DNA of 21,231 nt, taken from the IMG/VR virus record IMGVR_UViG_2698536518_000005. The stretch is one strand, 5' to 3'. The stretch's first letter is position 1. Each line of letters starts with the position of its first letter. Made by a program: the position numbers and the translations under genes. The notes below the pieces were generated by a model, which searched no databases, was not told the DNA's origin, and worked only from the letters and a program-made list of their open reading frames with translations. Shown here piece after piece: positions 462-21,231 of the stretch. The stretch is from a virus. Taxonomy: Duplodnaviria > Heunggongvirae > Uroviricota > Caudoviricetes.

Positions 462-462
<1 letters not shown>
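1..462 (-). CDS. stf: Side tail fibre protein (Stf-like), internal/C-terminal portion; frame runs off the window start
   Basis: Minus-strand frame is open from 462 to 1 and reads MRGWTIKGKPASGRAVLSQEQDGIKSHTHS...GAHTHSLSGTAASAGAHAHTVGIGAHTHSVAI, matching the internal region of lambda Stf as I recall it, with its HxH repeats. ATG at 460-462. Absent from the ORF track because it has no in-window stop. Confidence 0.7.
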
Positions 463-2686
<2,224 letters not shown>

Positions 2687-2706
<20 letters not shown>

Positions 2707-4499: not shown

Positions 4500-5019
4500 T
4501 CAGCAACCCCGGTATCAGTTCATCCAGCGCGGCTGCTTTGTTCATGGCTTTGATGATATCCCGTTTCAGGAAATCAACATGTCGGTTTTCCAGTTCCGGA
4601 AAACGCCGCTGCACCGACAGGGGGATCCCGTCGAGAATACTGGCAATTTCACCTGCGATCCGCGACAGCACGAAAGTACAGAATGCGGTTTCCACCACTT
4701 CAGCGGAGTCTCTGGCATTTTTCAGCTCCTGTGCGTCGGCCTGCGCACGCGTAAGTCGATGGCGTTCGTACTCAATAGTCCCTGGCTGGAGATCTGTCTC
4801 GCTGGCCTGCCGCAGTTCTTCAACTTCCCGGCGCAGCTTTTCGTTCTCAATTTCAGCATCCCTTTCGGCATACCATCTTATAACGGCGGCAGAGTCATAA
4901 AGCACCTCATTACCCTTGCCACCGCCTCGCAGAACGGGCATTCCCTGTTCCTGCCAGTTCTGAATGGTACGGATACTCGCACCGAAAATGTCAGCCAGCT
5001 GCTTTTTGTTGACTTCCAT
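4474..5019 (-). CDS. nu1: Terminase small subunit Nu1 (181 aa)
   Basis: Translation MEVNKKQLADIFGASIRTIQNWQEQGMPVLRGGGKGNEVLYD... matches lambda Nu1. Its stop overlaps the A start, as in lambda. Confidence 0.93.
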   Translation of the reverse strand: MEVNKKQLADIFGASIRTIQNWQEQGMPVLRGGGKGNEVLYDSAAVIRWYAERDAEIENEKLRREVEELRQASETDLQPGTIEYERHRLTRAQADAQELKNARDSAEVVETAFCTFVLSRIAGEIASILDGIPLSVQRRFPELENRHVDFLKRDIIKAMNKAAALDELIPGLLSEYIEQSG

Positions 5020-5029
5020 TGTTCATTCC

Positions 5030-5225
5030 ACGGCCAAAAACAGAGAAAGGAAACGACAGAGGCCCAAAAGCTCGTTTTCAGCACCTGTCGTTTCCTTTCT
5101 TTTCAGGGGGTATTTTAAATAAAAACATTAAGTTACGACGAAGAAGAACGGAAATGCCTTAAACCGGAAAATTTTCATAAATAGCGAAAACCCGCGAGGT
5201 CGCCGCCCCGTAACCTGTCGGATCG
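5030..5225 (-). other. cos: cos site: cosB between Nu1 and cosN; 12-nt cohesive end at 5197-5208
   Basis: Reverse complement of 5021-5208 reads GGGCGGCGACCTCGCGGGTTTTCGCTATTTATGAAAATTTTCCGGTTTAAGG..., near-identical to the lambda left end as recalled. Flanking 5209-5235 matches the lambda right end (CGTAACCTGTCGGATC...). Confidence 0.85.
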
Positions 5226-5407
5226 CCGGAAAGGACCCGCAAAATGATAATAATTATCATCTGCATGTCACAACGTGCATCTACGCCATCAAACCACGTC
5301 AAATAATCAATTATGACGCAGGTATCATATTAATTGATCTGCATCAACTTAACGTAAAAACAACTTCAGACAATACAAATCAGCGACACTGAATACGGGG
5401 CAACCTC

Positions 5408-5641
5408 ATGTCAACGAAGAACAGAACCCGCAGAACAACAACCCGCAACATCCGCTTTCCTAACCAAATGATTGAACAAATTAACATCGCTCTTGAGCAA
5501 AAAGGGTCCGGGAATTTCTCAGCCTGGGTCATTGAAGCCTGCCGCCGGAGACTGTGCTCAGAAAAAAGAGTTTCTTCTGAAGCAAACAAAGAAAAGAGTG
5601 ACATTACTGAATTGCTCAGAAAACAGGTCAGACCAGATTGA
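5408..5641 (+). CDS. ynfO: Small prophage protein of unknown function (77 aa), YnfO-like
   Basis: Complete ORF in the position expected for ynfO in Qin-type prophages. Basic N-terminus MSTKNRTRRTTTRN. Name assigned by synteny and recollection. Confidence 0.55.
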   Translation: MSTKNRTRRTTTRNIRFPNQMIEQINIALEQKGSGNFSAWVIEACRRRLCSEKRVSSEANKEKSDITELLRKQVRPD

Positions 5642-5698
5642 AGCAATTTAGATAATCGTGCAGACTACGCCCCCTCATATCATATGGAAGGTTTATCT

Positions 5699-6109
5699 AT
5701 GGATCAGGTAGTCATTTTTAAACAAATATTTGATAAAGTTCGAAACGATTTAAACTATCAATGGTTTTATTCTGAGCTAAAACGTCACAATGTCTCACAT
5801 TACATTTACTATTTAGCCACAGAGAATGTTCATATTGTATTAAAAAATGATAATACAGTGTTATTAAAGGGCCTAAAAAACATTGTGTCTGTCAAATTTT
5901 CAAAGGATAGGCATCTTATAGAAACGACCTCTAATAAGCTGAAATCCAGAGAGATCACATTTCAGGAATACAGAAGAAACCTTGCTAAAGCAGGAGTTTT
6001 TCGGTGGGTTACAAATATCCACGAACAAAAAAGATATTACTATACCTTTGATAATTCATTACTATTTACTGAAAGCATCCAGAAAACTACACAGATCTTA
6101 CCACGCTAA
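5699..6109 (+). CDS. ydfO: YdfO-family prophage protein (DUF1398-like), ~136 aa
   Basis: ORF 5684-6109. The second ATG at 5699 has GGAAGG 7-8 nt upstream; the first ATG has no RBS. Confidence 0.65.
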
Positions 6110-6260
6110 ACCATAACGTCCGGCTTCTCTCACTCCTGAGCCGGACTGCATTGGTTTAATAAAAACCATCAACAATTGTGATTTAGATATTCGGAACCAT
6201 TCAAATATAACAAAACCCCGTAAAAACGAGGTTTATGGATAAATTTTATTATTGAATACA

Positions 6261-6437
6261 TCAGATTAAATTAATCTTGACATCATAGCTTTCAAGACCC
6301 GTCATTTTTTCCCGTGCGGTAAACTGAATACTGGTAACTTCTTTCCCGGTCTTTTTCTTAAGTTCAATAATTTTTTTTGTTATATATTCAGAAATATCTG
6401 CTTCTGCTTTTGTTTTTAAGTTTTCAATATTCATCAT
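6261..6437 (-). CDS. gnsB: GnsA/GnsB-family small protein (57-58 aa)
   Basis: Hand translation of the minus strand gives MMNIENLKTKAEADISEYITKKIIELKKKTGKEVTSIQFTAREKMTGLESYDVKINLI, close to GnsA/GnsB. AGAGGA RBS upstream; tandem ATGs at 6437 and 6434. Too short for the ORF track. Confidence 0.75.
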   Translation of the reverse strand: MMNIENLKTKAEADISEYITKKIIELKKKTGKEVTSIQFTAREKMTGLESYDVKINLI

Positions 6438-6605
6438 TTCCTCTTTTAGTCTGTTATGACTTTCCAGTTACACAGTAAGTCGATTATATGGTGCAAACGT
6501 GTAAAAGATAAGATGAAACATCGCAATAATCAACATACGATAGTCTAAATTTTACACAAACAGACAAAGAGAATTTTCCTGAATTATCAATGCAATAGCA
6601 TCAAA

Positions 6606-6836
6606 TCAACTCAAGAGCCTTATTGCTGCTTCCAGAATTTCTTCTGAAGTAACATGTCGATCCGCGGCTACATAAATGACTTTATGATCTCCGGTCAGAG
6701 ATGGAAACCCTGCGGCCATTACAGTAAGGTGTGTTTTTTCGCCATTTGGATATTCACGCATGATGGTGTTAACTCCAGTCATCGCTGGCACTACCACTGC
6801 TGGTTCAGAGTTAAAAAAAACTATGATTTTTTTCAT
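6606..6836 (-). CDS. Small hypothetical protein (76 aa from MKKIIVFF...), possibly YnfN-like
   Basis: ORF 6606-6878. The start at the internal ATG (6834-6836) is preferred because a terminator hairpin sits at 6878-6900. Identity is uncertain. Confidence 0.45.
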   Translation of the reverse strand: MKKIIVFFNSEPAVVVPAMTGVNTIMREYPNGEKTHLTVMAAGFPSLTGDHKVIYVAADRHVTSEEILEAAIRLLS

Positions 6837-6877
6837 GATGTTACCGTAGTATGTGAGTATCCATCGAATAGACACCA

Positions 6878-6900
6878 AGCAAAAAAGCTCCCGAAGGAGC
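6878..6900 (-). terminator. Rho-independent terminator (GCTCC-CGAA-GGAGC hairpin with T-run on the minus strand)
   Basis: Stem 6887-6891 / 6896-6900. The minus strand reads GGCTCCTTCGGGAGCTTTTTTGC. Lies downstream of cspI. Confidence 0.5.
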
Positions 6901-7107
6901 CTTCATTTTCACTTTTTTAAATCCAACGACAGACGGCTGGCATTTAAGTATTGTGAAATATTATCAAATGTAATCATCATTGATTTACAAAAGATACATT
7001 TTGCCCCGAAAGGATTCATGTCAGAAACATCAAAAGATGATGTTCTATACTGGGAACCATGACAACACGGGCATCTAAAGTGAATATGGTTTGTAATATT
7101 GTCTACC

Positions 7108-7320
7108 TCAAAGCGCCACTACATGAACAGCGGCAGGACCTTTAGGTCCGTTCTCAATACCAAATTCAACTTCCTGATTCTCAGTTAATGTTTTGAAATC
7201 GTTGCTCTGAATTGCTGAGAAATGGACAAACACATCTTTGCTGCCATCTTTCGGCGTGATGAAACCAAAACCTTTTTCAGGGTTAAACCATTTCACTAAA
7301 CCAGTCATTTTGTTAGACAT
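7108..7320 (-). CDS. cspI: Cold-shock protein CspI (70 aa)
   Basis: Translation [70 protein letters not shown] carries the CspA-family RNP motifs. A ~160-nt untranslated leader lies upstream. Confidence 0.93.
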
Positions 7321-7682
7321 AATTATTACCTTTTGAAGAAATTAGCCCTTGGGCAGAATGGTCCGAAAAAAAATATCAGAGAGAAAAACCAACAAGGAAA
7401 TCTCAAGAGGTACAAATAATAAAATTATAACAATGACTGCTTCAGATAAATTTGTAACAAACCAGAACACCATTAACGCATGATTAACCACCCATAGCAA
7501 GGATTACTTTTGTAAAGAAAAACACAGCAATGAAAGAATAGCTTTATTTATTAATAAAACGTGTCATTCTGATTAAGACCTTTTATCTTACCCTTAAGAT
7601 TTCAGGAATTTTGGCTCATGGAAGAGTCCTTTTTATTTAAATTTTACATTCCGCGATGTAAATGTTCCGATTTAATATTACC

Positions 7683-8706
<1,024 letters not shown>

Positions 8707-8710
<4 letters not shown>

Positions 8711-9018
8711 AGATATTTATGATGAGGACGCTCGTGCTTATTGGCAGGATTTTCAATCTTAAAGGAGTACTGATGCTGCAGATAAGACTCAACTTTTTCT
8801 GACAATTTTTCTGCTACTTCCAGGAAGACTTGCCGGACGCTCCTTCTGGCTGCTGCCTCATAAAACTCCAGCGCAGCTCCTTCAACACGGTCCATGGCGA
8901 CATCCAGGTCAAAAATTTCACCGTCAAAGCGTTCTTTGTCCTGTAAGGCTACAGTTACCGTAACTTTATTCTCAAAATTACGGACTCCTTTCACAACCAG
9001 TTCATAGTCTTGAGTCAT
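8707..9018 (-). CDS. ydfR: YdfR-family protein (DUF1327-like) within the lysis cassette
   Basis: Complete 103-aa ORF between holin and endolysin with overlapping stop/start, as in Qin-type prophages. Confidence 0.65.
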
Positions 9019-9022
9019 TGGA

Positions 9023-9238
9023 TTACTCTCCTCTCGCAGCCTTACGCCTGTCTTCTTTAATCTTGAAATAAAGATTTGTCAGATACGTCAGCAGGCCAAA
9101 AACCAGGCTACCCAGCACACCGATTGCAGCCCACTGTGACGGAGTTACTTTATCGAGTAACTGCAATGCCCAGAAACCAGCATTACCCGCCGATGTGCCA
9201 TAGGCAACACCTGTTGTTAACTTATCCATTGATTTCAT
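9023..9238 (-). CDS. essQ: Class II pinholin (S21-like, 71 aa) with dual start MKSM
   Basis: From the internal Met: [71 protein letters not shown]. Two transmembrane domains and the dual-start motif typical of phage 21 S. Confidence 0.85.
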
Positions 9239-9457
9239 ATCCTCACCCCGATGTACACGGATGGTGCAATATGTTTGAAAAGATCGGAGTCTACGGGGTA
9301 GTTTTGACAGCACACGTTGTTCTCAACGGCGCTAAAAAAACATACACATTAAAAATGTGGGTAATTATTTTGAAAGAAAGTCATATATAAAATAATAATA
9401 CGAGAAATGTTTTCATATTTAGTGTACTGTATACGGCCATTTATACAGGAAAAGCCT

Positions 9458-9628
9458 ATGTCAGAACGTAAAAACTCAAAATCACGCCGTAATTATCTCG
9501 TTAAATGTTCCTGCCCAAACTGCACCCAAGAGTCAGAACACAGTTTTTCAAGAGTACAAAAAGGTGCCCTTTTGATCTGCCCTCATTGCAACAAAGTATT
9601 CCAGACAAATCTTAAAGCTGTAGCCTGA
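9458..9628 (+). CDS. ynfU: Small zinc-ribbon protein (56 aa; CxxC...CxxC), YnfU-like
   Basis: MSERKNSKSRRNYLVKCSCPNCTQESEHSFSRVQKGALLICPHCNKVFQTNLKAVA. AGGAAAAG RBS before the ATG at 9458. Name from recollection. Confidence 0.5.
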   Translation: MSERKNSKSRRNYLVKCSCPNCTQESEHSFSRVQKGALLICPHCNKVFQTNLKAVA

Positions 9629-9680
9629 TTGATTTTATTAGTAACAAGTATTTTTTATATTTTAATAATATATTTAAAGC

Positions 9681-9710
9681 AGATAATAAAAAACCCGCCT
9701 GAGCGGGTTT
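9681..9710 (-). terminator. Rho-independent terminator (AAACCCGC-CTGA-GCGGGTTT; strongest on the minus strand)
   Basis: Hairpin 9691-9710. The minus strand is followed by TTTTTTATTATC. The plus-strand side is weaker. Confidence 0.5.
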
Positions 9711-9991
9711 GAGATTGTGGTGCTTTTTGTGGGAGTCATCCACTTACGCACTTTGTTTTGCCATGCCAGCAGTTAGCTTCTGCTGTAAAACTATTCATGC
9801 AGCAAACCTGCACTTCACCACAATGGTTAGCATACTTTTCCTGATTAAGATTTTGCCAAATATGCTAGCCATTGTTTCATGTATTGGACCTCCTTACTTT
9901 TTATTAAAGAGATCCAATATTCACTACTCTGTCCGTATCTCTACTCAGGCATCAGCCTTCTTCGTTATCGTATACAGACGAGCGATGAATT

Positions 9992-10207
9992 TTAATCAGT
10001 AATGATGACATTTGCTGCTGCAGGACCTTTAGCACCACTCTCTATAGAGAAGGTAACCTTTTGACCTTCAAATAAGGTTCGATAATTATCATTCTGAATC
10101 GCAGAAAAATGCACAAACACATCTTTACTACCATCAACAGGAGAAATAAAGCCGAAACCTTTATCAGCGTTAAACCATTTTACTAAACCAGTCATTTTAT
10201 TTGACAT
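9992..10207 (-). CDS. cspB: Cold-shock protein CspB (71 aa)
   Basis: Translation [71 protein letters not shown]. Confidence 0.93.
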
Positions 10208-10507
10208 TCTACATTCCTTAACTTGAGCCTTTCGGCATAAATGGTTTGCATAACAGAAACGACTTCGTACTTAATTGGAGAGACTCAAAGAAGGAATAAG
10301 TGAATAACACCTGAAATGAGAACTGCTTTAGTAAACTACTTCGTATATCGTCTGTTCTTCAAACCGACGCAATCATTAACGCATAGTTGAACATATGAAG
10401 CAATGTTTATTTTAGACATCCAGCCATCTTCAACCCCATCAAAAAACTATAGCTTTCTTCAGGAACGTGTGTATAGTGCGCCAAGTTATCAGTATTAAGG
10501 AATTTTT

Positions 10508-10720
10508 TTGTCCCGTAAAATGACAGGAATTGTCAAAACCTTTGACGGCAAAAGCGGCAAGGGTCTTATCACCCCATCCGATGGTCGTATCGATGTCCAG
10601 CTTCATGTTTCAGCGCTCAATCTCCGCGATGCAGAAGAAATTACCACCGGATTACGCGTGGAATTTTGCCGGATAAATGGTCTGCGTGGCCCTTCAGCTG
10701 CCAATGTTTACCTTTCATGA
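10508..10720 (+). CDS. cspF: Cold-shock-like protein CspF (70 aa)
   Basis: Translation [41 protein letters not shown]...[10 protein letters not shown]. Divergent from cspB. Confidence 0.9.
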
Positions 10721-11010
10721 GCTATATTAAAGCTTTAATTTCAGGCCCCATCGGATCACACATGGAGAGTTTTTATGAATAACCCCGTCTGTCTTGATGA
10801 CTGGTTGATTGGCTTTAAAAGCTTATGCTGTACTTTGGCCGTAATAGCTCTGCTAATAATATAATAAGCAGACTCATTGTGTTTAGGGACATTGTACTGG
10901 AAGAAAACATTTTAAACATCAGGCAAATAACCAAGTCACCAGCTAAATAATAAGTTAACAGACATGAGTCCCGGGATGAGATTCAACATTACCATTGCCC
11001 CATTTAAAGC

Positions 11011-11048
11011 ACAAAACCCGCTCATCAGCGGGTTTTCTACTTTTTCTT
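11011..11048. terminator. Bidirectional rho-independent terminator (CCCGCT-CATC-AGCGGG with U-runs on both sides)
   Basis: Plus strand: hairpin then TTTTCTACTTTTTCTT. Minus strand: hairpin then TTTTGTGCTTT. Lies between convergent cspF and Q; candidate tR' for the late transcript. Confidence 0.6.
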
Positions 11049-11081
11049 AACGTCGGGTATACAAAGCCCATCGTTGAAAAA

Positions 11082-11110
11082 ATTTTATCCATATTTTTTG
11101 AAAAATGCAA
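11082..11110 (-). promoter_or_regulatory. Candidate late promoter pR' (-35 TTGCAT, 17-bp spacer, -10 TAAAAT on the minus strand), just downstream of Q
   Basis: Minus-strand hexamers at 11110-11105 and 11087-11082. Positioned like lambdoid pR' between Q and the downstream terminator. Not verified. Confidence 0.3.
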
Positions 11111-11141
11111 ACATCATGTCGCCATCTTCAGCAAAAATCAT

Positions 11142-11858
11142 TTATCTCGTCACCTTCCTCAATTGCGCTTCCGCGTATGCTTCTTCCTGCCAGCACTTTG
11201 TTACCAGTTTACCAATGACGTCCGCATACCCCTTATACCACTGATAATCGGTCAGGTCTGGTACCAGCTTCTGGACATGACGTCGTGCCAGCGTGGTCGG
11301 TAAACGACTAAACCGGTTTCCATTACAACGCCCACAAATCTTATATACCGGTACGCCATGAAACCGGGTTCTTTTTTCATCCAGAACAATCCCTTTACCC
11401 TTACACCCTCTGCACGCTGTGCTGGCTTCGCCCTTACCATGGCAATGCTGACATAGTTCCTTCACCCATTCTTCCTTGATTACAGATTCCCCGCGTCTGT
11501 AGTGTTTCACCACTTCGCGCAATACATTATAAAATCCCGTACCTGAACAATGCTCACAGCGAGCCTTACTTGCCGCAGACCTGGAGTAATCAGCAAAGGC
11601 AAAACTCACGAGGTAAGGAATAATCTGTAACCGGATTTCTTCACTCAATTTGTTCAATGTCGGGTTATCCAGTGCCATCGCGTAATTTAGCAGGCCTTCA
11701 ATCGCAAACTGAGGGTCCTGAACACCAACTTTTGCCAGAAATAAGGCCAACCCAAGTGGTGCTTTCGACTGCACCATCCCCTGCGCTGCCATTTCAACGC
11801 ACACAGCATAGAGGCCATCTTCACAAAAAATTTTACGCAGTTCTTCGATGTTCATCAT
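11142..11858 (-). CDS. quuQ: Late-gene antiterminator Q (238 aa) with four CxxC motifs
   Basis: CEHCSGTG / CQHCHGKG / CRGCKGKG / CGRCNG zinc motifs. Sits upstream of the lysis genes in the same orientation. Confidence 0.8.
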   Translation of the reverse strand: MMNIEELRKIFCEDGLYAVCVEMAAQGMVQSKAPLGLALFLAKVGVQDPQFAIEGLLNYAMALDNPTLNKLSEEIRLQIIPYLVSFAFADYSRSAASKARCEHCSGTGFYNVLREVVKHYRRGESVIKEEWVKELCQHCHGKGEASTACRGCKGKGIVLDEKRTRFHGVPVYKICGRCNGNRFSRLPTTLARRHVQKLVPDLTDYQWYKGYADVIGKLVTKCWQEEAYAEAQLRKVTR

Positions 11859-11971
11859 CAGAATCCTTCCGGATAATTAGCTCTCCCCTTTAAGGGACCA
11901 TCCCTCTTATCCCTGCGCGCTACTTAAGTATTTTTGATTCTATTCCGGCACCGTCCAGAACTTCAAACGCG

Positions 11972-12006
11972 TTGAAAATAAAAACAAAAACCCGCCGAAG
12001 CGGGTT
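11972..12006 (-). terminator. Rho-independent terminator downstream of hokD
   Basis: Hairpin CCCGC-CGAA-GCGGG at 11991-12004, followed on the minus strand by TTTTTGTTTTTATTTTC. Confidence 0.7.
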
Positions 12007-12074
12007 AAGTGCGGGTGCGTTGAGGATGCCTGCCACATCAGAGGTGGCGAGGGATTTCTCCCCCGCCGGGTCTC

Positions 12075-12230
12075 TTACTCCTCAGGTTCGTAAGCTGTGA
12101 AGACAGCGACCTCCGTCTGGCCGGTTCGGATTCGTACCTCGCAGAGGTCTTTCCTCGTTACCAGTGCCGTCACTATGACGGTTAAACAGATGACGATCAG
12201 GGCGATTAACATCGCCTTTTGCTGCTTCAT
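12075..12230 (-). CDS. hokD: Hok-family small toxin HokD/RelF (51 aa)
   Basis: Hand translation of the minus strand: MKQQKAMLIALIVICLTVIVTALVTRKDLCEVRIRTGQTEVAVFTAYEPEE. Too short for the ORF track. Confidence 0.9.
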   Translation of the reverse strand: MKQQKAMLIALIVICLTVIVTALVTRKDLCEVRIRTGQTEVAVFTAYEPEE

Positions 12231-12301
12231 AGCCTGCTTCTCCTGTCAACGCAAAGCAGAAGTGTCACCTTCGGTGCGAAACAGAGATGTCATGCTTTGG
12301 T

Positions 12302-12589
12302 TCAGAGAATGCGTTTGACCGCCTCGCTATATACTTCCGAGCGTTCTCTTTTCCCAACAGAAATCACGAAAACGACAACTTTCTCGTCTATAACCTGGTA
12401 TACAAGGCGATAGCCTGAAGACCGGAGCTTAATCTTGTAACAATCAGGCATACCACGGAGCTTGTTTGCTTCAATCCGGGGTGACTCAAGTACTTCAACC
12501 AGCTTCTTTTTCAACTGTTCACGTACCGTCGAGCCCAGCTTTCGCCATTCCTTTAGTGCCCGCTCGTCAAAATCCAGAAAATACGCCAT
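12302..12589 (-). CDS. relE: RelE mRNA-interferase toxin (95 aa)
   Basis: Translation MAYFLDFDERALKEWRKLGSTVREQLKKKLVEVLESPRIEANKLRGMPDCYKIKLRSSGYRLVYQVIDEKVVVFVISVGKRERSEVYSEAVKRIL. Confidence 0.95.
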   Translation of the reverse strand: MAYFLDFDERALKEWRKLGSTVREQLKKKLVEVLESPRIEANKLRGMPDCYKIKLRSSGYRLVYQVIDEKVVVFVISVGKRERSEVYSEAVKRIL

Positions 12590-12828
12590 CAGAGTTCATC
12601 CAGCGTCACACGTACTGGCTTAGGATTACGAAGCCGTTCTTTCACTATCTCCACAAGTTCAGCATCTTCATCACTCAGGAGTGTCTGTTTGAACGGCAAG
12701 CGTTCATTGTCAGCGATATACTCGAGCATGAGACGAAGCGCTTCAGAAGGAGTTACACCCATTTTTTCAAGCGCGGCGTAAGAACGCGCTTTAAGTTCAT
12801 CGTCAATACGCAGGTTAATGCTACCCAT
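12589..12828 (-). CDS. relB: RelB antitoxin (79 aa)
   Basis: Translation MGSINLRIDDELKARSYAALEKMGVTPSEALRLMLEYIADNERLPFKQTLLSDEDAELVEIVKERLRNPKPVRVTLDEL. ATGA overlap with relE. Confidence 0.95.
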   Translation of the reverse strand: MGSINLRIDDELKARSYAALEKMGVTPSEALRLMLEYIADNERLPFKQTLLSDEDAELVEIVKERLRNPKPVRVTLDEL

Positions 12829-12900
12829 GTCTTACACCTCTTGTAATTACAAATGTCATTACAAGTATCGCACTACAACATGCTTAGGGCAAGTCACGAA
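12829..12900 (-). promoter_or_regulatory. relBE promoter/operator (relO) with TTGTAAT/ATTACAA inverted repeats
   Basis: 12841-12865 reads TTGTAATTACAAATGTCATTACAAG, directly upstream of the relB RBS. Minus-strand -35 TTGCCC and -10 GATACT candidates at 12866-12895. Confidence 0.65.
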
Positions 12901-13158
12901 GGAAGTCAGAAAGTAGTCGTAAGAACGGTGATCACTGTCCGCTTTGTGCCAGGAGCAGCCATTGCTAAGTCCATCCTGTATTGTGCAGGTCAGCTCGTTT
13001 TTAAAGAGTCCGGCCATCATCTTACTGGTACAGACACCATATACTTTGTGACGGTCAGGCTACATATGCACAACTCAACTTATTCATCTATTTTTTGCTT
13101 TAGCATGTCAGTGTTGCTTTCTCGTCGGCGGGTGAGCGGTGACCTGACCTGTCGATAA
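12853..13158 (+). CDS. Hypothetical protein (101 aa), possibly YdfV-like
   Basis: Complete ORF in the position of ydfV between relB and flxA. No recognisable domain; overlaps the relB operator region, so it could be spurious. Confidence 0.35.
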   Translation: MSLQVSHYNMLRASHEGSQKVVVRTVITVRFVPGAAIAKSILYCAGQLVFKESGHHLTGTDTIYFVTVRLHMHNSTYSSIFCFSMSVLLSRRRVSGDLTCR

Positions 13159-13310
13159 AGGAACGTAACACGTTTTATGCAACACCCGCATGCGGCAGAA
13201 AATTATTGCCGAACGTTTACCCCTGTCAACAAGCTTTACTTTCTGAGGCGCGCCAGCCCGCGAGGAAAACAATCTGAACATCAAACAATTAATGACACAA
13301 GAAATACGAT

Positions 13311-13337
13311 TAAAGATTTTTTTGTGCATGCCGATAG
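13311..13337 (+). promoter_or_regulatory. Sigma-28 (FliA) class-3 flagellar promoter of flxA
   Basis: TAAAG at 13311-13315, 15-nt spacer, GCCGATAG at 13330-13337, against the consensus TAAA-N15-GCCGATAA. AGGAG RBS at 13351-13355. Confidence 0.75.
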
Positions 13338-13360
13338 TGCTTTTTTAAAAGGAGAAATCT

Positions 13361-13693
13361 ATGTCTGTCACAATTCAGGGAAATACCTCAACCGTTATTT
13401 CAAACAACTCCGCCCCGGAAGGAACATCAGAAATAGCCAAAATCACAAGACAAATTCAGGTGCTGACTGAAAAGCTTGGGAAAATCTCATCGGAAGAGGG
13501 GATGACGACACAGCAGAAAAAAGAAATGGCTGCATTGGTACAGAAGCAAATTGAAAGCCTCTGGGCTCAACTGGAGCAGTTGTTAAGGCAGCAGGCAGAG
13601 AAAAAGAATGAAGACGCGACAGTTCAGCCTGATAAAAAAGAAGAGAAAAAAGACGATACAAATACCGCTGGCACCATTGATATTTACGTCTAA
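13361..13693 (+). CDS. flxA: FlxA (110 aa), FliA-regulated prophage protein
   Basis: Translation MSVTIQGNTSTVISNNSAPEGTSEIAKITRQIQVLTEKLGK... with sigma-28 promoter upstream. Confidence 0.93.
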   Translation: MSVTIQGNTSTVISNNSAPEGTSEIAKITRQIQVLTEKLGKISSEEGMTTQQKKEMAALVQKQIESLWAQLEQLLRQQAEKKNEDATVQPDKKEEKKDDTNTAGTIDIYV

Positions 13694-13707
13694 GTGACAG
13701 CCGTATT

Positions 13708-13734
13708 GTGGCCCTCATCGGGCCACTTTTCGCC
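13708..13734 (+). terminator. Rho-independent terminator of flxA
   Basis: GTGGCCC-TCATC-GGGCCAC hairpin followed by TTTTCGCC. Confidence 0.7.
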
Positions 13735-14129
13735 ATCAGCCTTTTCTTTAAAGACATATTATCTTTGTATCATTTCTGATAGTTAACATTACAAGATATA
13801 AGTAATGGACGCACTCCCAATTAGTCTATTTAAATCGCCACGAGTTTAACTGACAACCCATGATCAATTATGAATTGCAACTATTTCTGTAGTCACTTTT
13901 GTGGGGACAGTCCACAAAACTGCCAACTTCCGCTTCTTGCTCTTAGCGGACATTAGCATAGGCTATTTACCATAACGCCTCATTACGCGCACCGCCCAGA
14001 CTGACTCAGCGCGTTTCTGGCATATCCCCGGTAAAACAAGTAACAAACCACCCGAAAATGAACACCAGAAACGCGACTTAAGAATCTACCCTATGAATGG
14101 ATATGCACTCAACCGAATCGATCTTGGTT

Positions 14130-14807
14130 TCAATCTTTTTTATCGGGATCAGGCTTCTTTTTAGGTAACTTCGGGGGCTTAACTTGCTGATGACTTTGCG
14201 TTCGGCGCGTAAGCCAGGGATGGTCAGCTTTAGGTTTAACATAGTATTTTGAGCGTAAATCAATACGGGCATTATCCACTCGTTCATGGACACTCTTTTC
14301 ATCATCCAGTGGTATAGGCTCCGGGCCATCAACATACTTTTCCCAGCCCAGCGCTTTCCCGTCATACAGAACGTTAATTTCACCGTCAAAGTTCTCGCAT
14401 ACAGTAACAACCGAATGCCTAAGTCGATATCCCCGGCCCTCACTGCGTACCTGAAACGCACTGCTTTTGTACTGGAAAGTGAGATTTTTAGACAGAACGC
14501 GCTTCGCCTGTAGGCTGAAGATATAACCCAGTTCCTCTTCAGAATGGTGCACATCAAGATGAGCATTATCAGTAGTACGAGGCGACGTAGCGAACCGGTT
14601 GTTATAGGCTTCAATAAAGGTCGGCAACCATGCATTTGCTGTTTCAATATCACTGATATTCTGAAGCCGCATTTCTTTGACCAGCCTGTCCTGTAGTGTC
14701 TGATTGGCGCGCTCTACCCGCCCTTTTGCCTGCGGGCTGTTGGCATGGATTGGCTCGATGCCCAGTGTCTTTATCGCACGAGTGAACTGGGTCAGCTCAC
14801 CTTCCAG
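14130..14807 (-). pseudogene. C-terminal fragment (~225 codons) of a DDE/rve-type transposase or integrase core; N-terminal part missing
   Basis: Minus-strand frame reads ...FTRAIKTLGIEPIHANSPQAKGRVERANQTLQDRLVKEMRLQNISDIETANAWLPTFIEAYNNRFA..., the signature region around the third catalytic E of rve domains. The frame opens right at the dicC junction with no upstream D-D region or start codon. Confidence 0.65.
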
Positions 14808-14893
14808 CTATAAAGCGAAGCCAAACGAATACCTGCTGCTTGTGCAAGTTTTGTTTTTGAACCGAAATACAAAAGAGCGTCAGTTTTAAGCAT
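14792..14893 (-). pseudogene. dicC: dicC (Cro-like regulator) truncated after codon 31
   Basis: Hand translation MLKTDALLYFGSKTKLAQAAGIRLASLYSWK matches the DicC N-terminus, then runs VS-stop where the transposase-derived sequence begins. Divergent from dicA. Confidence 0.75.
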
Positions 14894-14908
14894 TTAAAAC
14901 ACCTTTAT

Positions 14909-14974
14909 TGTTAGTCATAACTAACAAGATAGATGTTAACAAAAACATAGTCAATACGATTTAGCATTAGCTAA
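14909..14974. promoter_or_regulatory. dicA-dicC intergenic operator region with two TTAG-N6-CTAA inverted repeats
   Basis: TGTTAGTCATAACTAACA at 14909-14926 and TTAGCATTAGCTAA at 14961-14974. The same motif recurs upstream of ydfA. Confidence 0.6.
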
Positions 14975-14976
14975 CT

Positions 14977-15384
14977 ATGGAAACAAAAAATTTAACTATC
15001 GGCGAACGCATCAGGTATCGTCGGAAAAACCTCAAACACACCCAAAGGTCTCTTGCTAAAGCCCTGAAAATCTCCCATGTGTCTGTATCACAATGGGAAC
15101 GGGGTGATAGTGAACCTACAGGGAAGAACCTTTTTGCCCTCAGCAAAGTATTGCAATGCTCACCAACATGGATTCTATTTGGCGATGAAGACAAGCAACC
15201 AACACCACCTGTTGAGAAGCCAGTTGCCTTATCCCCCAAAGAACTAGAGCTCCTTGAGCTGTTTAATGCACTGCCAGAATCAGAACAGGATACCCAGCTC
15301 GCCGAAATGCGAGCTCGAGTAAAAAACTTCAATAAACTCTTTGAAGAATTACTAAAAGCCCGTCAGCGGACAAATAAAAGATAA
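14977..15384 (+). CDS. dicA: DicA, HTH (XRE-family) repressor of the dicB operon (135 aa)
   Basis: Translation METKNLTIGERIRYRRKNLKHTQRSLAKALKISHVSVSQWERGDSEPTGKNLFALSKVLQCSPTWILFGDED... Confidence 0.95.
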   Translation: METKNLTIGERIRYRRKNLKHTQRSLAKALKISHVSVSQWERGDSEPTGKNLFALSKVLQCSPTWILFGDEDKQPTPPVEKPVALSPKELELLELFNALPESEQDTQLAEMRARVKNFNKLFEELLKARQRTNKR

Positions 15385-15444
15385 CATCATCAATGAGTTA
15401 TCTTTTACCACATCAATTATGTTAGCTATAGCATACAAAATCAC

Positions 15445-15473
15445 TTGACCGATATGTTAGTCATGGCTAATCT
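15445..15473 (+). promoter_or_regulatory. Candidate dicB-operon promoter (-35 TTGACC, -10 TAATCT) overlapped by a TTAG-N6-CTAA operator
   Basis: TTGACC at 15445-15450, 17-bp spacer, TAATCT at 15468-15473. Operator TTAGTCATGGCTAA at 15457-15470. Confidence 0.5.
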
Positions 15474-15550
15474 TGTTTGCATCAACACACCGCACGGTGT
15501 TCTCAGCAAACAGTTCCGCTACCCCAGCGTTAAGGGGAAATGAGGTCAGC

Positions 15551-15706
15551 ATGGATACTATCGATCTTGGCAACAACGAATCTCTGGTGTACGGCGTGTT
15601 TCCAAACCAGGACGGCACGTTCACCGCAATGACGTATACCAAAAGCAAAACGTTTAAAACCGAAAATGGTGCCCGTCGCTGGCTGGAAAGAAACTCAGGT
15701 GAGTGA
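15551..15706 (+). CDS. ydfA: YdfA small protein (51 aa)
   Basis: MDTIDLGNNESLVYGVFPNQDGTFTAMTYTKSKTFKTENGARRWLERNSGE. GGGGAAATGAGG RBS. Confidence 0.8.
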   Translation: MDTIDLGNNESLVYGVFPNQDGTFTAMTYTKSKTFKTENGARRWLERNSGE

Positions 15707-15707
15707 T

Positions 15708-15836
15708 ATGGATTTCGACACAATCATGGAAAAGGCTTACGAAGAATACTTCGAAGGCCTTGCCGAAGGCGAAGAAGCTCTCAGCTTCAGTGAGTTTAAA
15801 CAGGCGCTTTCCAGTTCGGCAAAATCTAACGGCTGA
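15708..15836 (+). CDS. ydfB: YdfB small protein (42 aa)
   Basis: Hand translation MDFDTIMEKAYEEYFEGLAEGEEALSFSEFKQALSSSAKSNG. Start 2 nt after the ydfA stop. Confidence 0.8.
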   Translation: MDFDTIMEKAYEEYFEGLAEGEEALSFSEFKQALSSSAKSNG

Positions 15837-15865
15837 TAAGCGAAACAGCACCGCGAGGAATCAGT

Positions 15866-16084
15866 ATGCAGAAACGAGAACCCGTCATCATCGCGCCAGA
15901 CTATACCGATGATGAACTTTATGAGTGGATGCGCCAGAAAATTAATGCAGCGCAGGATCTGAAATGGGCTAATGAAGCCAGGGCTAAGCAGGCTGAAAAT
16001 CTGTCCGCTCTGGAGCAGGATATCACCAATCTGGAAAAAGCAGCGGCATTAAGCATTGCCAGAATGATTACATACCCGCGTTAG
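15866..16084 (+). CDS. ydfC: YdfC (72 aa)
   Basis: MQKREPVIIAPDYTDDELYEWMRQKINAAQDLKWANEARAKQAENLSALEQDITNLEKAAALSIARMITYPR. GAGGA RBS. Confidence 0.85.
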   Translation: MQKREPVIIAPDYTDDELYEWMRQKINAAQDLKWANEARAKQAENLSALEQDITNLEKAAALSIARMITYPR

Positions 16085-16424
16085 TAGCTAATCAACAAAG
16101 CTAAGGTTAGTAATTAAGGAGTTCTCCACGGGTGAGGTGGAGTGCGTGCGCCGGACACGGGTGCGCATCCGGAACTGACAGTTTACTGAAAGGATATTTC
16201 CCTGAAAAGTCAGACCATAACGCGAAAGCGCACGGCGAGGTAGCTGGTTCATAGATAGCCTGTCGTTAAATTTTCGTCGACCGTGCGCTTCCGGTTGTGG
16301 CAACCCGCGAAATGGCGCGGCGGTAAGTATGGCGGGGTTATTCCTTCCCCGTTGAGGACACCGGGTTGTCAGGTTGACCATACGCTTAAGTGACAACCCC
16401 GCTGCAACGCCCTCTGTTATCAAT

Positions 16425-16482
16425 TTTCTGGTGACGTTTGGCGGTATCAGTTTTACTCCGTGACTGCTCTGCCGCCCTTTTT
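16425..16482 (+). ncRNA. dicF: DicF small RNA (53 nt plus U-tract), antisense regulator of ftsZ and other targets
   Basis: Sequence TTTCTGGTGACGTTTGGCGGTATCAGTTTTACTCCGTGACTGCTCTGCCGCCC followed by TTTTT matches DicF. The 3' GC hairpin acts as terminator. Confidence 0.9.
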
Positions 16483-16651
16483 AAAGTGAATTTTGTGATG
16501 TGGTGAATGCGGCTGAGCGCACGCGGAACAGTTAAAACCAAAAACAGTGTTATGGGTGGATTCTCTGTATCCGGCGTTAATTGTTAACTGGTTAACGTCA
16601 CCTGGAGGCACCAGGCACTGCATCACAAAATTCATTGTTGAGGACGCGATA

Positions 16652-16840
16652 ATGAAAACGTTATTACCAAACGTTAATACGTCTGAAGGTTGTTTTGAAA
16701 TTGGTGTCACTATCAGTAACCCAGTATTTACTGAAGATGCCATTAACAAGAGAAAACAAGAACGGGAGCTATTAAATAAAATATGCATTGTTTCAATGCT
16801 GGCTCGTTTACGTCTGATGCCAAAAGGATGTGCACAATGA
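16652..16840 (+). CDS. dicB: Cell-division inhibitor DicB (62 aa)
   Basis: MKTLLPNVNTSEGCFEIGVTISNPVFTEDAINKRKQERELLNKICIVSMLARLRLMPKGCAQ. GAGGA RBS. Confidence 0.9.
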   Translation: MKTLLPNVNTSEGCFEIGVTISNPVFTEDAINKRKQERELLNKICIVSMLARLRLMPKGCAQ

Positions 16841-17028
16841 ATTCAGCATTTGTGCTTGTTCTGACAGTTTTTCTTGTTTCCGGAGAGCCAGTTGATATTG
16901 CAGTCAGTGTTCACAGGACAATGCAGGAGTGTATGACTGCAGCAACCGAACAGAAAATTCCCGGTAACTGTTACCCGGTCGATAAAGTTATTCACCAGGA
17001 TAATATCGAAATCCCGGCAGGTCTTTAA
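16837..17028 (+). CDS. ydfD: YdfD (63 aa), small membrane lysis protein
   Basis: MNSAFVLVLTVFLVSGEPVDIAVSVHRTMQECMTAATEQKIPGNCYPVDKVIHQDNIEIPAGL. ATGA overlap with the dicB stop. Confidence 0.85.
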   Translation: MNSAFVLVLTVFLVSGEPVDIAVSVHRTMQECMTAATEQKIPGNCYPVDKVIHQDNIEIPAGL

Positions 17029-17120
17029 AACAGTTCCGTAATAAATATCCGGTTTCATTCTTATATGCCAGCAATGGCAGGGATTTGTTCATCCTTAAAT
17101 CTGTCATGAGGTTAAAACAA

Positions 17121-19592
17121 ATGAGTAAAGTCTTTATTTGCGCCGCTATTCCTGACGAACTGGCAACAAGGGAAGAAGGCGCTGTGGCTGTAGCCACAGC
17201 CATTGAAGCTGGCGACGAACGCCGTGCTCGAGCAAAATTTCACTGGCAATTCCTGGAACATTATCCGGCTGCTCAGGACTGCGCTTATAAATTTATTGTC
17301 TGCGAGGATAAACCTGGCATACCCCGCCCTGCCCTCGATTCATGGGATGCTGAATATATGCAGGAAAACCGCTGGGATGAGGAGTCTGCTTCTTTTGTCC
17401 CGGTTGAGACTGAATCCGATCCGATGAACGTCACTTTTGACAAGCTGGCCCCTGAAGTACAGAACGCTGTCATGGTTAAGTTCGACACATGTGAAAACAT
17501 CACCGTTGATATGGTTATTAGCGCACAGGAATTGTTGCAGGAAGACATGGCAACATTCGACGGACATATCGTTGAAGCGTTGATGAAAATGCCAGAAGTT
17601 AACGCCATGTATCCGGAGCTTAAGTTGCACGCCATTGGGTGGGTTAAGCATAAATGTATTCCTGGTGCTAAATGGCCCGAAATTCAGGCAGAGATGCGCA
17701 TCTGGAAAAAACGTCGCGAAGGTGAACGCAAGGAAACCGGAAAATACACGTCTGTTGTTGATCTCGCCCGCGCCAGAGCCAATCAACAGTACACTGAAAA
17801 TTCAACAGGAAAAATCAGCCCGGTCATTGCTGCCATTCATCGCGAATACAAGCAGACATGGAAAACACTGGATGACGAACTGGCCTACGCTCTCTGGCCT
17901 AGTGATGTGGATGCCGGAAACATTGACGGCAGCATCCATCGCTGGGCAAAAAAAGAAGTTATCGACAACGACCGCGAAGACTGGAAGCGTATCTCGGCAT
18001 CAATGCGCAAACAGCCTGATGCCCTTCGCTACGACCGCCAAACTATTTTTGGCCTTGTCCGTGAGCGTCCGATCGACATTCACAAAGATCCCGTAGCACT
18101 GAACAAATATATCTGCGAATACCTGACGACAAAGGGCGTGTTTGAGAATGAAGAAACAGACCTGGGCACTGTTGATGTTCTCCAGTCATCAGAAACACAA
18201 ACTGATGCAGTGGAAACTGAGGTATCTGATATCCCAAAAAATGAAACCGCGCCGGAAGCTGAACCATCTGTAGAGCGTGAGGGGCCGTTCTATTTCCTCT
18301 TCGCAGATAAGGACGGAGAAAAATACGGTCGCGCAAACAAACTCTCTGGTCTGGATAAGGCACTGGCTGCTGGCGCCACTGAAATCACAAAAGAAGAATA
18401 TTTTGCCCGAAAAAATGGCACATACACGGGCTTACCGCAAAATGTAGATACCGCTGAAGATTCAGAACAACCAGAGCCGATAAAAGTTACCGCTGACGAA
18501 GTAAACAAAATTATGCAGGCAGCCAATATCAGCCAGCCTGACGCCGATAAGTTGCTTGCTGCATCACGTGGTGAATTTGTTGAAGGGATTAGTGACCCGA
18601 ATGATCCGAAATGGGTTAAGGGGCTCCAGACCCGCGATTCTGTGAACCAGAACCAGCATGAATCGGAACGGAACTACCAAAAAGCGGAACAAAACAGTCC
18701 AAATGCGTTACAAAACGAGCCAGAAACGAAACAGCCTGAACCAGTAGCGCAACAGGAAGTGGAAAAAGTCTGCACCGCCTGCGGTCAGACCGGCGGCGGC
18801 AACTGCCCTGATTGTGGCGCGGTGATGGGCGACGCAACATACCAAGAAACATTCGATGAAGAGTATCAGGTTGAAGTTCAGGAAGATGATCCGGAGGAAA
18901 TGGAAGGCGCTGAACATCCACACAAGGAGAACACTGGCGGCAATCAGCATCACAATAGCGATAATGAAACTGGCGAGACGGCAGATCACCCAATTAAGGT
19001 GAACGGTCATCACGAAATCACATCCACCAGCAGGACGTGTGACCATCTAATGATCGACCTTGAAACCATGGGAAAAAATCCTGATGCCCCGATCATCTCA
19101 ATAGGTGCAATATTTTTCGATCCGCAAACCGGAGATATGGGACCGGAATTTAGTAAGACTATCGATCTGGAAACTGCTGGCGGAGTCATTGATCGGGACA
19201 CCATTAAATGGTGGCTTAAGCAATCACGCGAAGCGCAATCTGCCATTATGACCGATGAAATCCCGTTAGATGATGCACTGTTACAATTGCGAGAATTTAT
19301 CGACGAAAACTCCGGTGAATTTTTTGTTCAGGTTTGGGGAAATGGAGCCAACTTCGACAACACGATTTTGCGCCGTTCATACGAACGGCAGGGGATCCCC
19401 TGCCCGTGGCGTTACTACAACGATCGCGATGTACGCACAATCGTTGAGCTGGGGAAAGCCATAGACTTCGATGCCAGAACGGCTATTCCATTCGAAGGTG
19501 AGCGCCATAATGCACTTGATGACGCCCGTTACCAGGCAAAATACGTTTCAGTTATCTGGCAAAAACTGATCCCGAGTCAGGCTGATTCTTAA
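17121..19592 (+). CDS. Large prophage exonuclease (~823 aa): YdfE-like N-terminal domain, acidic linker with a CxxC-x8-CxxC zinc ribbon, and a C-terminal DEDDh 3'-5' exonuclease domain
   Basis: ATG at 17121 with GAGG RBS. N-terminus MSKVFICAAIPDELATREEGAVAVATAIE... The C-terminal domain has exo motifs MIDLET, GNGANFD and H-x4-D (HNALDDA). Zinc ribbon CTACGQTGGGNCPDCG. Confidence 0.8.
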   Translation: MSKVFICAAIPDELATREEGAVAVATAIEAGDERRARAKFHWQFLEHYPAAQDCAYKFIVCEDKPGIPRPALDSWDAEYMQENRWDEESASFVPVETESDPMNVTFDKLAPEVQNAVMVKFDTCENITVDMVISAQELLQEDMATFDGHIVEALMKMPEVNAMYPELKLHAIGWVKHKCIPGAKWPEIQAEMRIWKKRREGERKETGKYTSVVDLARARANQQYTENSTGKISPVIAAIHREYKQTWKTLDDELAYALWPSDVDAGNIDGSIHRWAKKEVIDNDREDWKRISASMRKQPDALRYDRQTIFGLVRERPIDIHKDPVALNKYICEYLTTKGVFENEETDLGTVDVLQSSETQTDAVETEVSDIPKNETAPEAEPSVEREGPFYFLFADKDGEKYGRANKLSGLDKALAAGATEITKEEYFARKNGTYTGLPQNVDTAEDSEQPEPIKVTADEVNKIMQAANISQPDADKLLAASRGEFVEGISDPNDPKWVKGLQTRDSVNQNQHESERNYQKAEQNSPNALQNEPETKQPEPVAQQEVEKVCTACGQTGGGNCPDCGAVMGDATYQETFDEEYQVEVQEDDPEEMEGAEHPHKENTGGNQHHNSDNETGETADHPIKVNGHHEITSTSRTCDHLMIDLETMGKNPDAPIISIGAIFFDPQTGDMGPEFSKTIDLETAGGVIDRDTIKWWLKQSREAQSAIMTDEIPLDDALLQLREFIDENSGEFFVQVWGNGANFDNTILRRSYERQGIPCPWRYYNDRDVRTIVELGKAIDFDARTAIPFEGERHNALDDARYQAKYVSVIWQKLIPSQADS

Positions 19593-19664
19593 TGTTCAAC
19601 TGTCGCCGGTTGTGACTGGTATTCTGCAACCGGCGCTCGTCTGATGTAAGAGATAAAGAAATCG

Positions 19665-19916
19665 ATGAGCGAAGTAATCATGATTGTCTCTCCCGGCAAA
19701 TGGGTATCCGAAGAGCAGTTAATTGCGCTGAAAGGAATAAAAAAAGGTACGTTAAAAAAGGCCCGGGAAAAATCGTTTATGGAAGGAAGGGAATATAAGC
19801 ATGTCGCTCATGACGGTATGCCATGGGATAACAGTCCATGCTTTTACAACCTGGAAGAAATTGATCGCTGGATTGAGCGCCAGGCATCAGCGAGACCAAG
19901 ACGTCATCTTACTTGA
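19665..19916 (+). CDS. Excisionase-like small protein (83 aa)
   Basis: Small basic ORF immediately upstream of the integrase. Similarity to Rac-type putative excisionases is recalled only loosely. Confidence 0.55.
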   Translation: MSEVIMIVSPGKWVSEEQLIALKGIKKGTLKKAREKSFMEGREYKHVAHDGMPWDNSPCFYNLEEIDRWIERQASARPRRHLT

Positions 19917-19950
19917 CTAAAAGCCACACTAACTAATGAGAGAAGTTGAA

Positions 19951-21231
19951 ATGAAATATCCGACAGGCGTGGAAAACCATGGAGGGAAATTACGTATCTG
20001 GTTTGTTTATAAAGACGTAAGAGTCAGGGAAAATCTGGGGGTTCCTGACACAGCAAAAAACAGGCGCGTTGCAGGTGAACTACGCTCCTCTGTTTGTTAC
20101 GCAATAAAAACTGGTGTTTTCGACTATGCAAAACAGTTTCCCTCCTCACGCAATCTGGAAAAATTTGGTGAGGCCCGACAAGATTTAACCATAAAAGAAC
20201 TGGCTGAAAAATTTCTGGCACTGAAAGAAACTGAAGTCGCCAAAACATCACTCAACACATACCGTGCCGTCATCAAAAATATCCTGAGCATAATCGGTGA
20301 AAAAAATCTTGCCTCATCGATTAATAAAGAAAAATTACTGGAGGTTCGTAAAGAGTTACTGACTGGATACCAGATCCCCAAAAGTAACTATATTGTTACA
20401 CAACCAGGGAGATCGGCTGTAACTGTAAATAATTACATGACAAATCTTAACGCCGTGTTCCAGTTTGGTGTTGATAACGGTTACCTGGCAGATAATCCGT
20501 TTAAGGGGATCTCGCCATTAAAGGAATCAAGAACCATTCCGGATCCTCTTTCGCGGGAAGAATTTATCCGTCTTATCGATGCGTGCAGAAATCAGCAAGC
20601 AAAAAATTTATGGTGTGTTTCTGTTTATACTGGAGTTCGCCCTGGTGAGCTGTGTGCACTTGGATGGGAGGACATAGATCTGAAAAATGGAACAATGATG
20701 ATCAGGAGAAATTTAGCAAAAGACCGTTTCACGGTACCAAAAACACAGGCGGGAACCAATCGGGTCATTCATCTTATTAAGCCAGCAATCGACGCTCTCC
20801 GGAGTCAGATGACATTAACGAGACTGAGCAAAGAGCATATCATTGATGTTCACCTCAGAGAGTATGGCAGAACAGAAAAACAAAAATGCACCTTTGTTTT
20901 TCAACCTGAAGTGTCAGCGAGAGTAAAAAATTATGGTGACCATTTTACCGTTGACTCAATAAGGCAGATGTGGGACGCAGCGATAAAACGTGCCGGACTC
21001 CGCCATCGAAAATCATATCAGTCGAGACATACTTATGCCTGCTGGTCGCTGACAGCTGGTGCTAACCCGGCATTTATAGCAAACCAGATGGGCCATGCAG
21101 ATGCGCAAATGGTATTTCAGGTATACGGAAAATGGATGTCTGAAAACAATAATGCACAGGTAGCTTTGTTAAATACACAGTTAAGCGAGTTTGCCCCAAC
21201 CATGCCCCATAACGAAGCAATGAAAAATTAA
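19951..21231 (+). CDS. intQ: Tyrosine site-specific integrase with DUF3596-type arm-binding N-terminus (426 aa from MKYPTG; alternative start at 19936)
   Basis: N-terminus MKYPTGVENHGGKLRIWFVYK... resembles Rac IntR-type integrases. C-terminal catalytic region carries the R...HxxR...Y signature (RHTYACW, VYGKW). Stop at 21229-21231. Confidence 0.88.
   Translation: MKYPTGVENHGGKLRIWFVYKDVRVRENLGVPDTAKNRRVAGELRSSVCYAIKTGVFDYAKQFPSSRNLEKFGEARQDLTIKELAEKFLALKETEVAKTSLNTYRAVIKNILSIIGEKNLASSINKEKLLEVRKELLTGYQIPKSNYIVTQPGRSAVTVNNYMTNLNAVFQFGVDNGYLADNPFKGISPLKESRTIPDPLSREEFIRLIDACRNQQAKNLWCVSVYTGVRPGELCALGWEDIDLKNGTMMIRRNLAKDRFTVPKTQAGTNRVIHLIKPAIDALRSQMTLTRLSKEHIIDVHLREYGRTEKQKCTFVFQPEVSARVKNYGDHFTVDSIRQMWDAAIKRAGLRHRKSYQSRHTYACWSLTAGANPAFIANQMGHADAQMVFQVYGKWMSENNNAQVALLNTQLSEFAPTMPHNEAMKN

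Follow-up and report, generated by a model that had tools for sequence, protein, structure and literature searches.

A truncated dicC adjoining a transposase remnant in a Qin-type cryptic prophage of Escherichia coli

In an Escherichia coli Qin-type cryptic prophage, the Cro-like gene dicC ends prematurely right beside the tail of a DDE-transposase gene, raising the questions of how these two remnants came to adjoin each other and how the loss of dicC would affect the DicA/DicC switch. The DNA that we analyzed (the window) is 21,231 bp long and carries recognizable hokD, relBE, ydfV, flxA, dicA, ydfABC, dicF, dicB, ydfD, an exonuclease gene, xis, and int; the features around the junction are collected in Table 1. 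Its best match over the whole length was E. coli N61 (NZ_AP028880.1), a bovine mastitis isolate, which covered it to 100% in two pieces spanning 25,580 bp of that genome. Window positions 1 to 14809 matched 1001 to 15809 of the N61 locus (L004) with 6 mismatches, one of them within the overlap, and positions 14802 to 21231 matched L004 20151 to 26580 with 0 mismatches. Left of the junction there are 5 SNPs in 14.8 kb, and the right side is 100% identical (flanks, 99.96% and 100%). The window also holds two cspA-type thermoregulator 5′-UTR elements (Rfam RF01766) on the minus strand, at 7081-7466 and 9976-10368, upstream of cspI and cspB, the cold-shock genes of the prophage, as expected for Qin.

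Table 1. Positions in the window of the features flanking the dicC junction
Feature	Position	Strand	Basis or comment
flxA 3′ flank, prophage DNA	13694..13924	plus	terminator hairpin, then spacer as far as the IS end; same as in undeleted relatives
Noncoding terminal IS segment downstream of the tnp stop	~13925..14129	minus	~200 bp; loss of similarity between contexts
3′ remnant of ISEsa1-like (IS1202 family) transposase gene	14130..14801	minus	residues ~214-437 of 437
Truncated dicC ORF	14792..14893	minus	31 native codons, then Val-Ser and TGA at 14792-14794
Deletion junction	14802..14809		TTCC (14802-14805) present on both ancestral sides
dicC-dicA divergent promoter/operator region, intact, 83 bp	14894..14976		100% identity to dicA/dicC loci in many genomes
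dicA, intact, 135 aa, CI-like repressor of dicBp and dicCp	14977..15384	plus	HTH_3, E = 1.3e-16
DicF sRNA gene, intact	16426..16477	plus	Rfam RF00039, 76.7 bits; target of the switch together with dicB

The two remnants

Translation of the minus strand from 14893 to 14792 gave MLKTDALLYFGSKTKLAQAAGIRLASLYSWKVS, a product of 33 aa followed by a stop codon. Its residues 1 to 31 are identical to K-12 DicC (76 aa), which reads MLKTDALLYFGSKTKLAQAAGIRLASLYSWK followed by GDLVPEGRAM…NHS; the window copy stops matching between these two parts, after codon 31. The sequence-only reading had reported a truncation after codon 31 and had placed the stop correctly, and the alignment to K-12 DicC leaves no intact 76-codon dicC; what that reading left out was the two foreign codons that precede the stop. 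Residues 1 to 59 of full-length DicC can be aligned with P22 Cro (PDB 1RZS), and the stub matched positions 2 to 30 of 60 in the Pfam P22_Cro profile (PF14549; E = 3.8e-5) with a score of 23.8 bits, below the cut-off of 30.2. At 33 aa and below the gathering score, the product falls short of a complete P22_Cro-type fold (about 58 to 76 aa). It has the N-terminal HTH feature of the family, and its gene and that of a CI-like repressor diverge from a common operator region. The stub holds helices 1 to 3 of the five-helix P22-Cro-type fold, and, with native sequence for just the N-terminal HTH half, it is very probably inactive. The dicC remnant is a pseudogene, not a working Cro-family gene.

The breakpoint in dicC (after nt 92; window 14790-14805, dicC nt ~92-105) lies about 1 to 12 nt from a mosaic boundary. 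From about codon 32 to 35 on, dicC and the downstream ydaT are ~96 to 97% identical to the cro-like/ydaT modules of other lambdoid prophages, e.g., those of E. coli B derivatives, from which the first 31 dicC codons have diverged. The closeness of breakpoint and boundary may be a coincidence. Many "partial DicC" database entries of 29 to 32 aa probably reflect assemblies that break at the repeat boundary.

Next to dicC, the minus-strand frame at 14130..14807 is open for 225 codons, contains ...SPQAKGRVERANQTLQ..., and reads LEGELTQFTRAIKTLGIEPIHANSPQAKGRVERANQTLQDRL…KKD from 14807 to its stop codon at 14130; the longest ATG-started ORF within it (14130-14672) encodes 180 aa. It matched Pfam rve_3 weakly (E = 1.6e-5; 25 bits, just below the cut-off of 26.5). 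However, in some 750 or more complete E. coli genomes, loci annotated as "ISNCY family transposase / ydfW" are 99.9% identical at the DNA level to window 13600-14809, and the transposase DNA is ~99% identical to plasmid genes annotated as "IS1202-like element ISEsa1 family transposase." Judged by this ~99 to 99.9% identity to annotated transposase loci, the frame is a real gene remnant and not a chance open frame, a concern that had been raised when only the letters were available. An in-frame DicC-transposase fusion can be rejected: the remnant lies in another frame than dicC, whose TGA follows two codons beyond the join.

How much of the transposase is left can be read from the N61 copy, which is intact, with 437 aa by translation, two N-terminal HTH domains (Pfam HTH_32/29/28), and the catalytic residues D140, D201, and E244. 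Their D-61-D-43-E spacing is close to that of TnpAjo2 (D142/D203/E247). The window remnant, the 3′ 680 nt of the gene, keeps E244, the beta-barrel, and the C-terminal part and has neither HTH1/2 nor D140 and D201, which bears out the earlier description of a C-terminal DDE-transposase fragment without the N-terminal catalytic part, the Glu being the only catalytic residue retained. A Gln at the seventh position after the catalytic Glu has been used as a defining signature of the IS1202 family (PMC10132070), and the remnant has it (GRVERANQTLQ). The full architecture of that family (HTH-HTH, RNaseH with D,D,E, beta-barrel, C-terminal part) is found in the N61 copy but not in the window. ISEsa1, a member of this family (formerly the ISNCY/IS1202 group), is 1,609 bp long with a 15/22 TIR, no TSD, and a 439-aa Tnp; besides the DNA identity to plasmid copies so annotated, the E…Q(+7) signature makes the window element resemble it. 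Unlike a whole ISEsa1, which would be bounded by two imperfect TIRs, the window has only the 3′ ~880 bp, i.e., tnp codons 214 to 437 and the one end downstream of tnp. With no catalytic Asp and one end missing, the remnant is catalytically dead and cannot transpose.

The last 49 transposase codons (14130-14279) correspond to K-12 "ydfW" (formerly intK), so that this K-12 gene is in fact an IS1202-family transposase tail. The N61 transposase ORF (L004 15130-16443, minus strand) is uninterrupted, yet RefSeq/PGAP presents it as a 49-aa "ydfW" plus a pseudogene, "ISNCY family transposase, missing C-terminus." This split looks like an annotation artifact inherited from the K-12 ydfW model.

The IS end and the stretch next to flxA

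For the stretch at 13735-14130, the sequence-only reading had noted the lack of a convincing ORF and had suggested an IS end or a further deletion scar. The ORF listing had no frame longer than 31 aa there, an Rfam scan of the whole window for a hidden RNA gene found no family in it, and no feature is annotated at the equivalent place in MG1655. The suggestion of an IS end proved apt. The element and an 89%-identical relative occur in three independent contexts, namely, Qin, IncF plasmids with ncrY as the neighbor, and an IncHI2 plasmid of Salmonella, between which similarity ends at window ~13925-13937; the plasmid matches begin at query positions 276 to 286, i.e., window 13925-13935. Set by such a comparison of contexts at about 13925-13940, the outer boundary of the element is good to about ±15 bp. 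An imperfect terminal inverted repeat lies at about 13941-13966 (17/26 in the 89%-identical relative), and a repeat search with local alignment found no strong terminal inverted repeat bounding the element in the Qin copy. In N61, the other end lies at about L004 16575-16596, inside the segment deleted from the window, which implies an IS length of ~1.63 to 1.67 kb, near the 1,609 bp given for ISEsa1. The suggestion of a second scar was rejected, as the stretch is colinear with undeleted reference loci (99.9 to 100% identity to K-12-like and N61 loci). On its flxA side, an intrinsic terminator 3′ of flxA (GTGGCCC-TCATC-GGGCCAC) occupies 13708-13726 and is followed by TTTT (to 13730).

Several other features were observed around the element. 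A perfect 12-bp inverted repeat, AGTTAACATTAC / GTAATGTTAACT, flanks the IS in N61, with one copy ~140 bp outside one IS end (window 13781-13792) and its partner ~30 bp outside the other (L004 16618-16629); the window keeps the flxA-side copy only. About 0.2 such 12-bp inverted pairs would be expected by chance in 2.5 kb. The repeat loosely resembles the XerD-arm sequence, and some IS1202-family members target dif-like sites. An imperfect hairpin at 13889-13927 (GTAGTCACTTTTGTGG / CCACAAAACTGCCAAC; 81% complementary, 7-nt loop) borders the inferred IS end on its outer side and could be a remnant of the insertion target. Just past the other IS end, the DNA at L004 16518-16692, deleted in the window, resembles hok/sok-type loci of plasmids, annotated as hokD or Hok/Gef, at ~86% identity. 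On several plasmids, flxA is found together with the ISEsa1-like element at ~99% identity; therefore, a Qin segment has moved onto plasmids or came from them.

A deletion between tnp and dicC

In N61 and full-length relatives, flxA is followed by the ISEsa1-like element, two pseudogenes, genes for a SAM-dependent methyltransferase and a DUF977 protein, a 966-bp hypothetical gene, a ydaT-family gene, and dicC. The window lacks 4,349 bp of N61 between its colinear flanks. At the join, the left parent reads …CTCACCTTCC / CGCTCTGG, the right parent …CCCCTTTCC / AGCTATAAAG (the slash marking the join), and the window …CTCACCTTCCAGCTATAAAG. The shared bases are a perfect 4-bp TTCC, or 7 of 8 over TTCCnGCT, and the junction lies inside the tnp ORF, 634 nt in, at about codon 213. 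Colinear flanks with few bases in common at the join are the marks of a microhomology-associated illegitimate deletion. A microhomology of 4 bp says little about which recombination pathway was at work.

Taken as a comparison of sequences, these data point to a single illegitimate, microhomology-associated deletion that joined mid-tnp to dicC codon 31, a reading to which we give a probability of about 0.88. A deletion, and not transposition, is indicated because the IS sits beside flxA in genomes in which dicC is intact, because the junction lies inside tnp, and because the flanks are colinear with N61. In the ancestral prophage, the ISEsa1-like element was already resident beside flxA, ~4.3 to 4.7 kb from dicC. 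The deletion, ~4.35 kb in size relative to N61 and ~4.7 kb relative to fully intact relatives, had both ends in unique DNA, one within tnp, and joined two remnants. It removed the 5′ 634 nt of tnp with the upstream IS end, dicC codons 32 to 76, and, from the early-right (PR-like) operon, the two pseudogenes, the SAM-methyltransferase, DUF977, and 966-bp hypothetical genes, and the ydaT-like gene. The outcome is a 33-aa DicC stub adjoining a dead transposase tail, with the DNA from flxA to the tail, including the surviving IS end, left untouched. The earlier notion of an arriving transposase fragment that truncated dicC does not hold on this account, the IS having been resident at a distance before the deletion joined the remnants.

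Two other origins deserve weighing. Since IS elements commonly cause adjacent deletions and a DDE-transposase remnant directly adjoins the break in dicC, the IS might have transposed into dicC, or a deletion anchored at an IS end might have run into it, with the element later truncated itself. This is most improbable, as comparison with N61 found no IS terminus, terminal repeat, or target duplication at the junction, which lies at tnp codon ~213, while the same IS occupies the same site beside flxA in hundreds of genomes with an intact dicC 4 to 5 kb away, and both flanks of the window are colinear with N61. The junction might instead be an assembly or chimera artifact in a genome that is truly of the N61 type: it was present in 0 of 5,426 complete E. 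coli genomes (megablast of 13600-15000), and the exact junction was not found in GTDB representative genomes or JGI metagenome contigs. However, 2 Logan contigs encode the exact 33-aa product. In one of them, which another pipeline had assembled from SRA run SRR18398401, the 39-nt junction string is present, and a stretch of 1,801 bp across the join shows 100% identity to the window. The two sides share only 4 to 8 bp, far too little for a k-mer graph collapse, and the 5 SNPs elsewhere relative to N61 mark the window as a distinct relative, so that we give an artifact next to no credence. The two contigs might come from the lineage of the window, or even from the same isolate. We take the deletion junction to be genuine but rare.

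Predicted effect on the switch and comparison with known systems

On the other side of the junction, dicB and ydfD are intact, like the features to the right of dicC in Table 1, and a promoter scan placed a dicCp-like −35 (TTGACT) and −10 (TATCTT) with 17-nt spacing at 14954-14926 on the minus strand. In K-12, DicA and DicC form a CI/Cro-like bistable switch, in which DicA has no RecA-cleavage site and Rem acts as a DicA antirepressor (bioRxiv 10.1101/2023.04.14.536235). Deletion of dicC in K-12 left the basal activity of dicBp unchanged, lowered the stably or spontaneously dicBp-induced cells from ~1% to 0.04%, and weakened dicBp induction by urea and 42°C (bioRxiv 10.1101/2023.04.14.536235), in line with the expectation from the sequence alone that the loss of DicC would change the switch. 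Without a Cro-like repressor to shut off dicA, the bistable switch would be unable to latch in the "on" state; dicBp (ydfABC-dicF-dicB-ydfD) would remain repressed by DicA, and its stable spontaneous or stress-induced expression would be much rarer. By analogy with the K-12 deletion mutants, the switch is probably locked in the DicA-repressed state, with the dicB and dicF division inhibitors off. In addition, rem keeps only codons 1 to 22 (MMNIEELRKIFCEDGLYAVCVE; window 11793-11858, minus strand, continuing downstream to ~11140); these run in frame into the C-terminal coding part of Q, the antiterminator gene, with ydfU absent, a scar shared with N61. With rem truncated and dicC lost, both known routes to dicBF de-repression are therefore predicted to be disabled.

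Other views of the consequence differ in how much they leave to this deletion. It is possible, though we consider it rather unlikely, that the deletion is real but functionally silent, having removed only dead DNA from an ancestor that already had a 365-bp dicC-ydaT deletion of the N61 type. In N61, the nearest relative, dicC breaks off at codon 43, where a ydaT remnant is joined to it, and this scar lies within the segment missing from the window. However, most genomes with this prophage have an intact dicC (at least 80% of dicC is present in 841 genomes), the ancestry is unreadable where the scar region is gone, and the present state is dicC-null either way, so that only the history is at stake. 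The window could have arisen either in one step of ~4.7 kb from a full-length ancestor or in two steps via an N61-type ancestor; the functional prediction is moot if the ancestor was already dicC-null. There is a very small chance that the stub, with its residues 1 to 31 including the predicted HTH region and with the dicC promoter and start codon intact, still binds the operators weakly or as a dominant negative, so that the switch is altered and not simply lost. However, a P22-Cro-type fold needs about 58 residues and, going by what is generally known of Cro proteins, a stub devoid of the C-terminal helices is unlikely to fold or dimerize. Induction of DicC inhibits growth and affects many host genes, with binding at hundreds of host sites (PMC11430063), and the loss of dicC is plausibly neutral or mildly beneficial. 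The joint loss of dicC and rem might even be a selected "domestication" and not random decay, in which the two routes to de-repression of the toxic dicBF operon and a growth-inhibitory DicC were removed and dicA, dicF, and dicB kept for a low-level, DicA-controlled benefit, e.g., DicB-mediated phage exclusion; we regard this as doubtful. If it were true, the position of the dicC breakpoint near the boundary between the specificity-determining HTH module and the C-terminal half common to lambdoid cro-like genes would matter.

Strains carrying the allele are expected to offer natural dicC-null, rem-null backgrounds in which DicA alone would control dicBF, and such backgrounds could help in the study of the DicA/DicC switch. 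Beyond strain annotation, the significance is otherwise small. The observation of a truncated dicC is correct and its explanation ordinary, namely, prophage decay: the components (Qin dicA/dicC/dicBF, the ydfW/intK transposase remnant, the IS1202-family ISEsa1, and prophage erosion by deletion) are all known, and only this particular allele is new.

The closest known counterpart is the Qin immunity region of K-12 (flxA - ydfW/intK - ydfX - dicC - dicA - ydfABC - dicF - dicB), which is the same prophage with the same gene order and near-identical sequence. K-12 MG1655 likewise has a deletion between the ISEsa1-like transposase remnant and the PR-like operon. However, that deletion starts deeper in the tnp tail and stops inside ydaT, which makes ydfX, and dicC is intact at 76 aa, whereas the window keeps more of tnp (224 codons) and has its other endpoint inside dicC. 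N61 and the full-length Qin-like prophages of ATCC 8739, W, and IAI1 have the IS at the same site beside flxA with near-identical flanks; unlike the window, they retain the 4.35- to 4.7-kb segment, in which the transposase ORF is intact (437 aa) and the methyltransferase, DUF977, and ydaT genes are found. The window allele is the third to have arisen by an independent deletion in the Qin immunity/early-right region, beside ydfW-ydfX in K-12 and dicC-ydaT in N61, and the segment between the ISEsa1-like element and dicC has therefore been repeatedly eroded. With DicA and DicC acting as CI and Cro, the predicted state of the switch is likewise reminiscent of cro-null lambda and P22 prophages, in which the induced state is not sustained without the Cro-like partner. 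Unlike lambda and P22, Qin is cryptic, and the output of its switch is the inhibition of cell division by DicB and DicF, not lytic growth.
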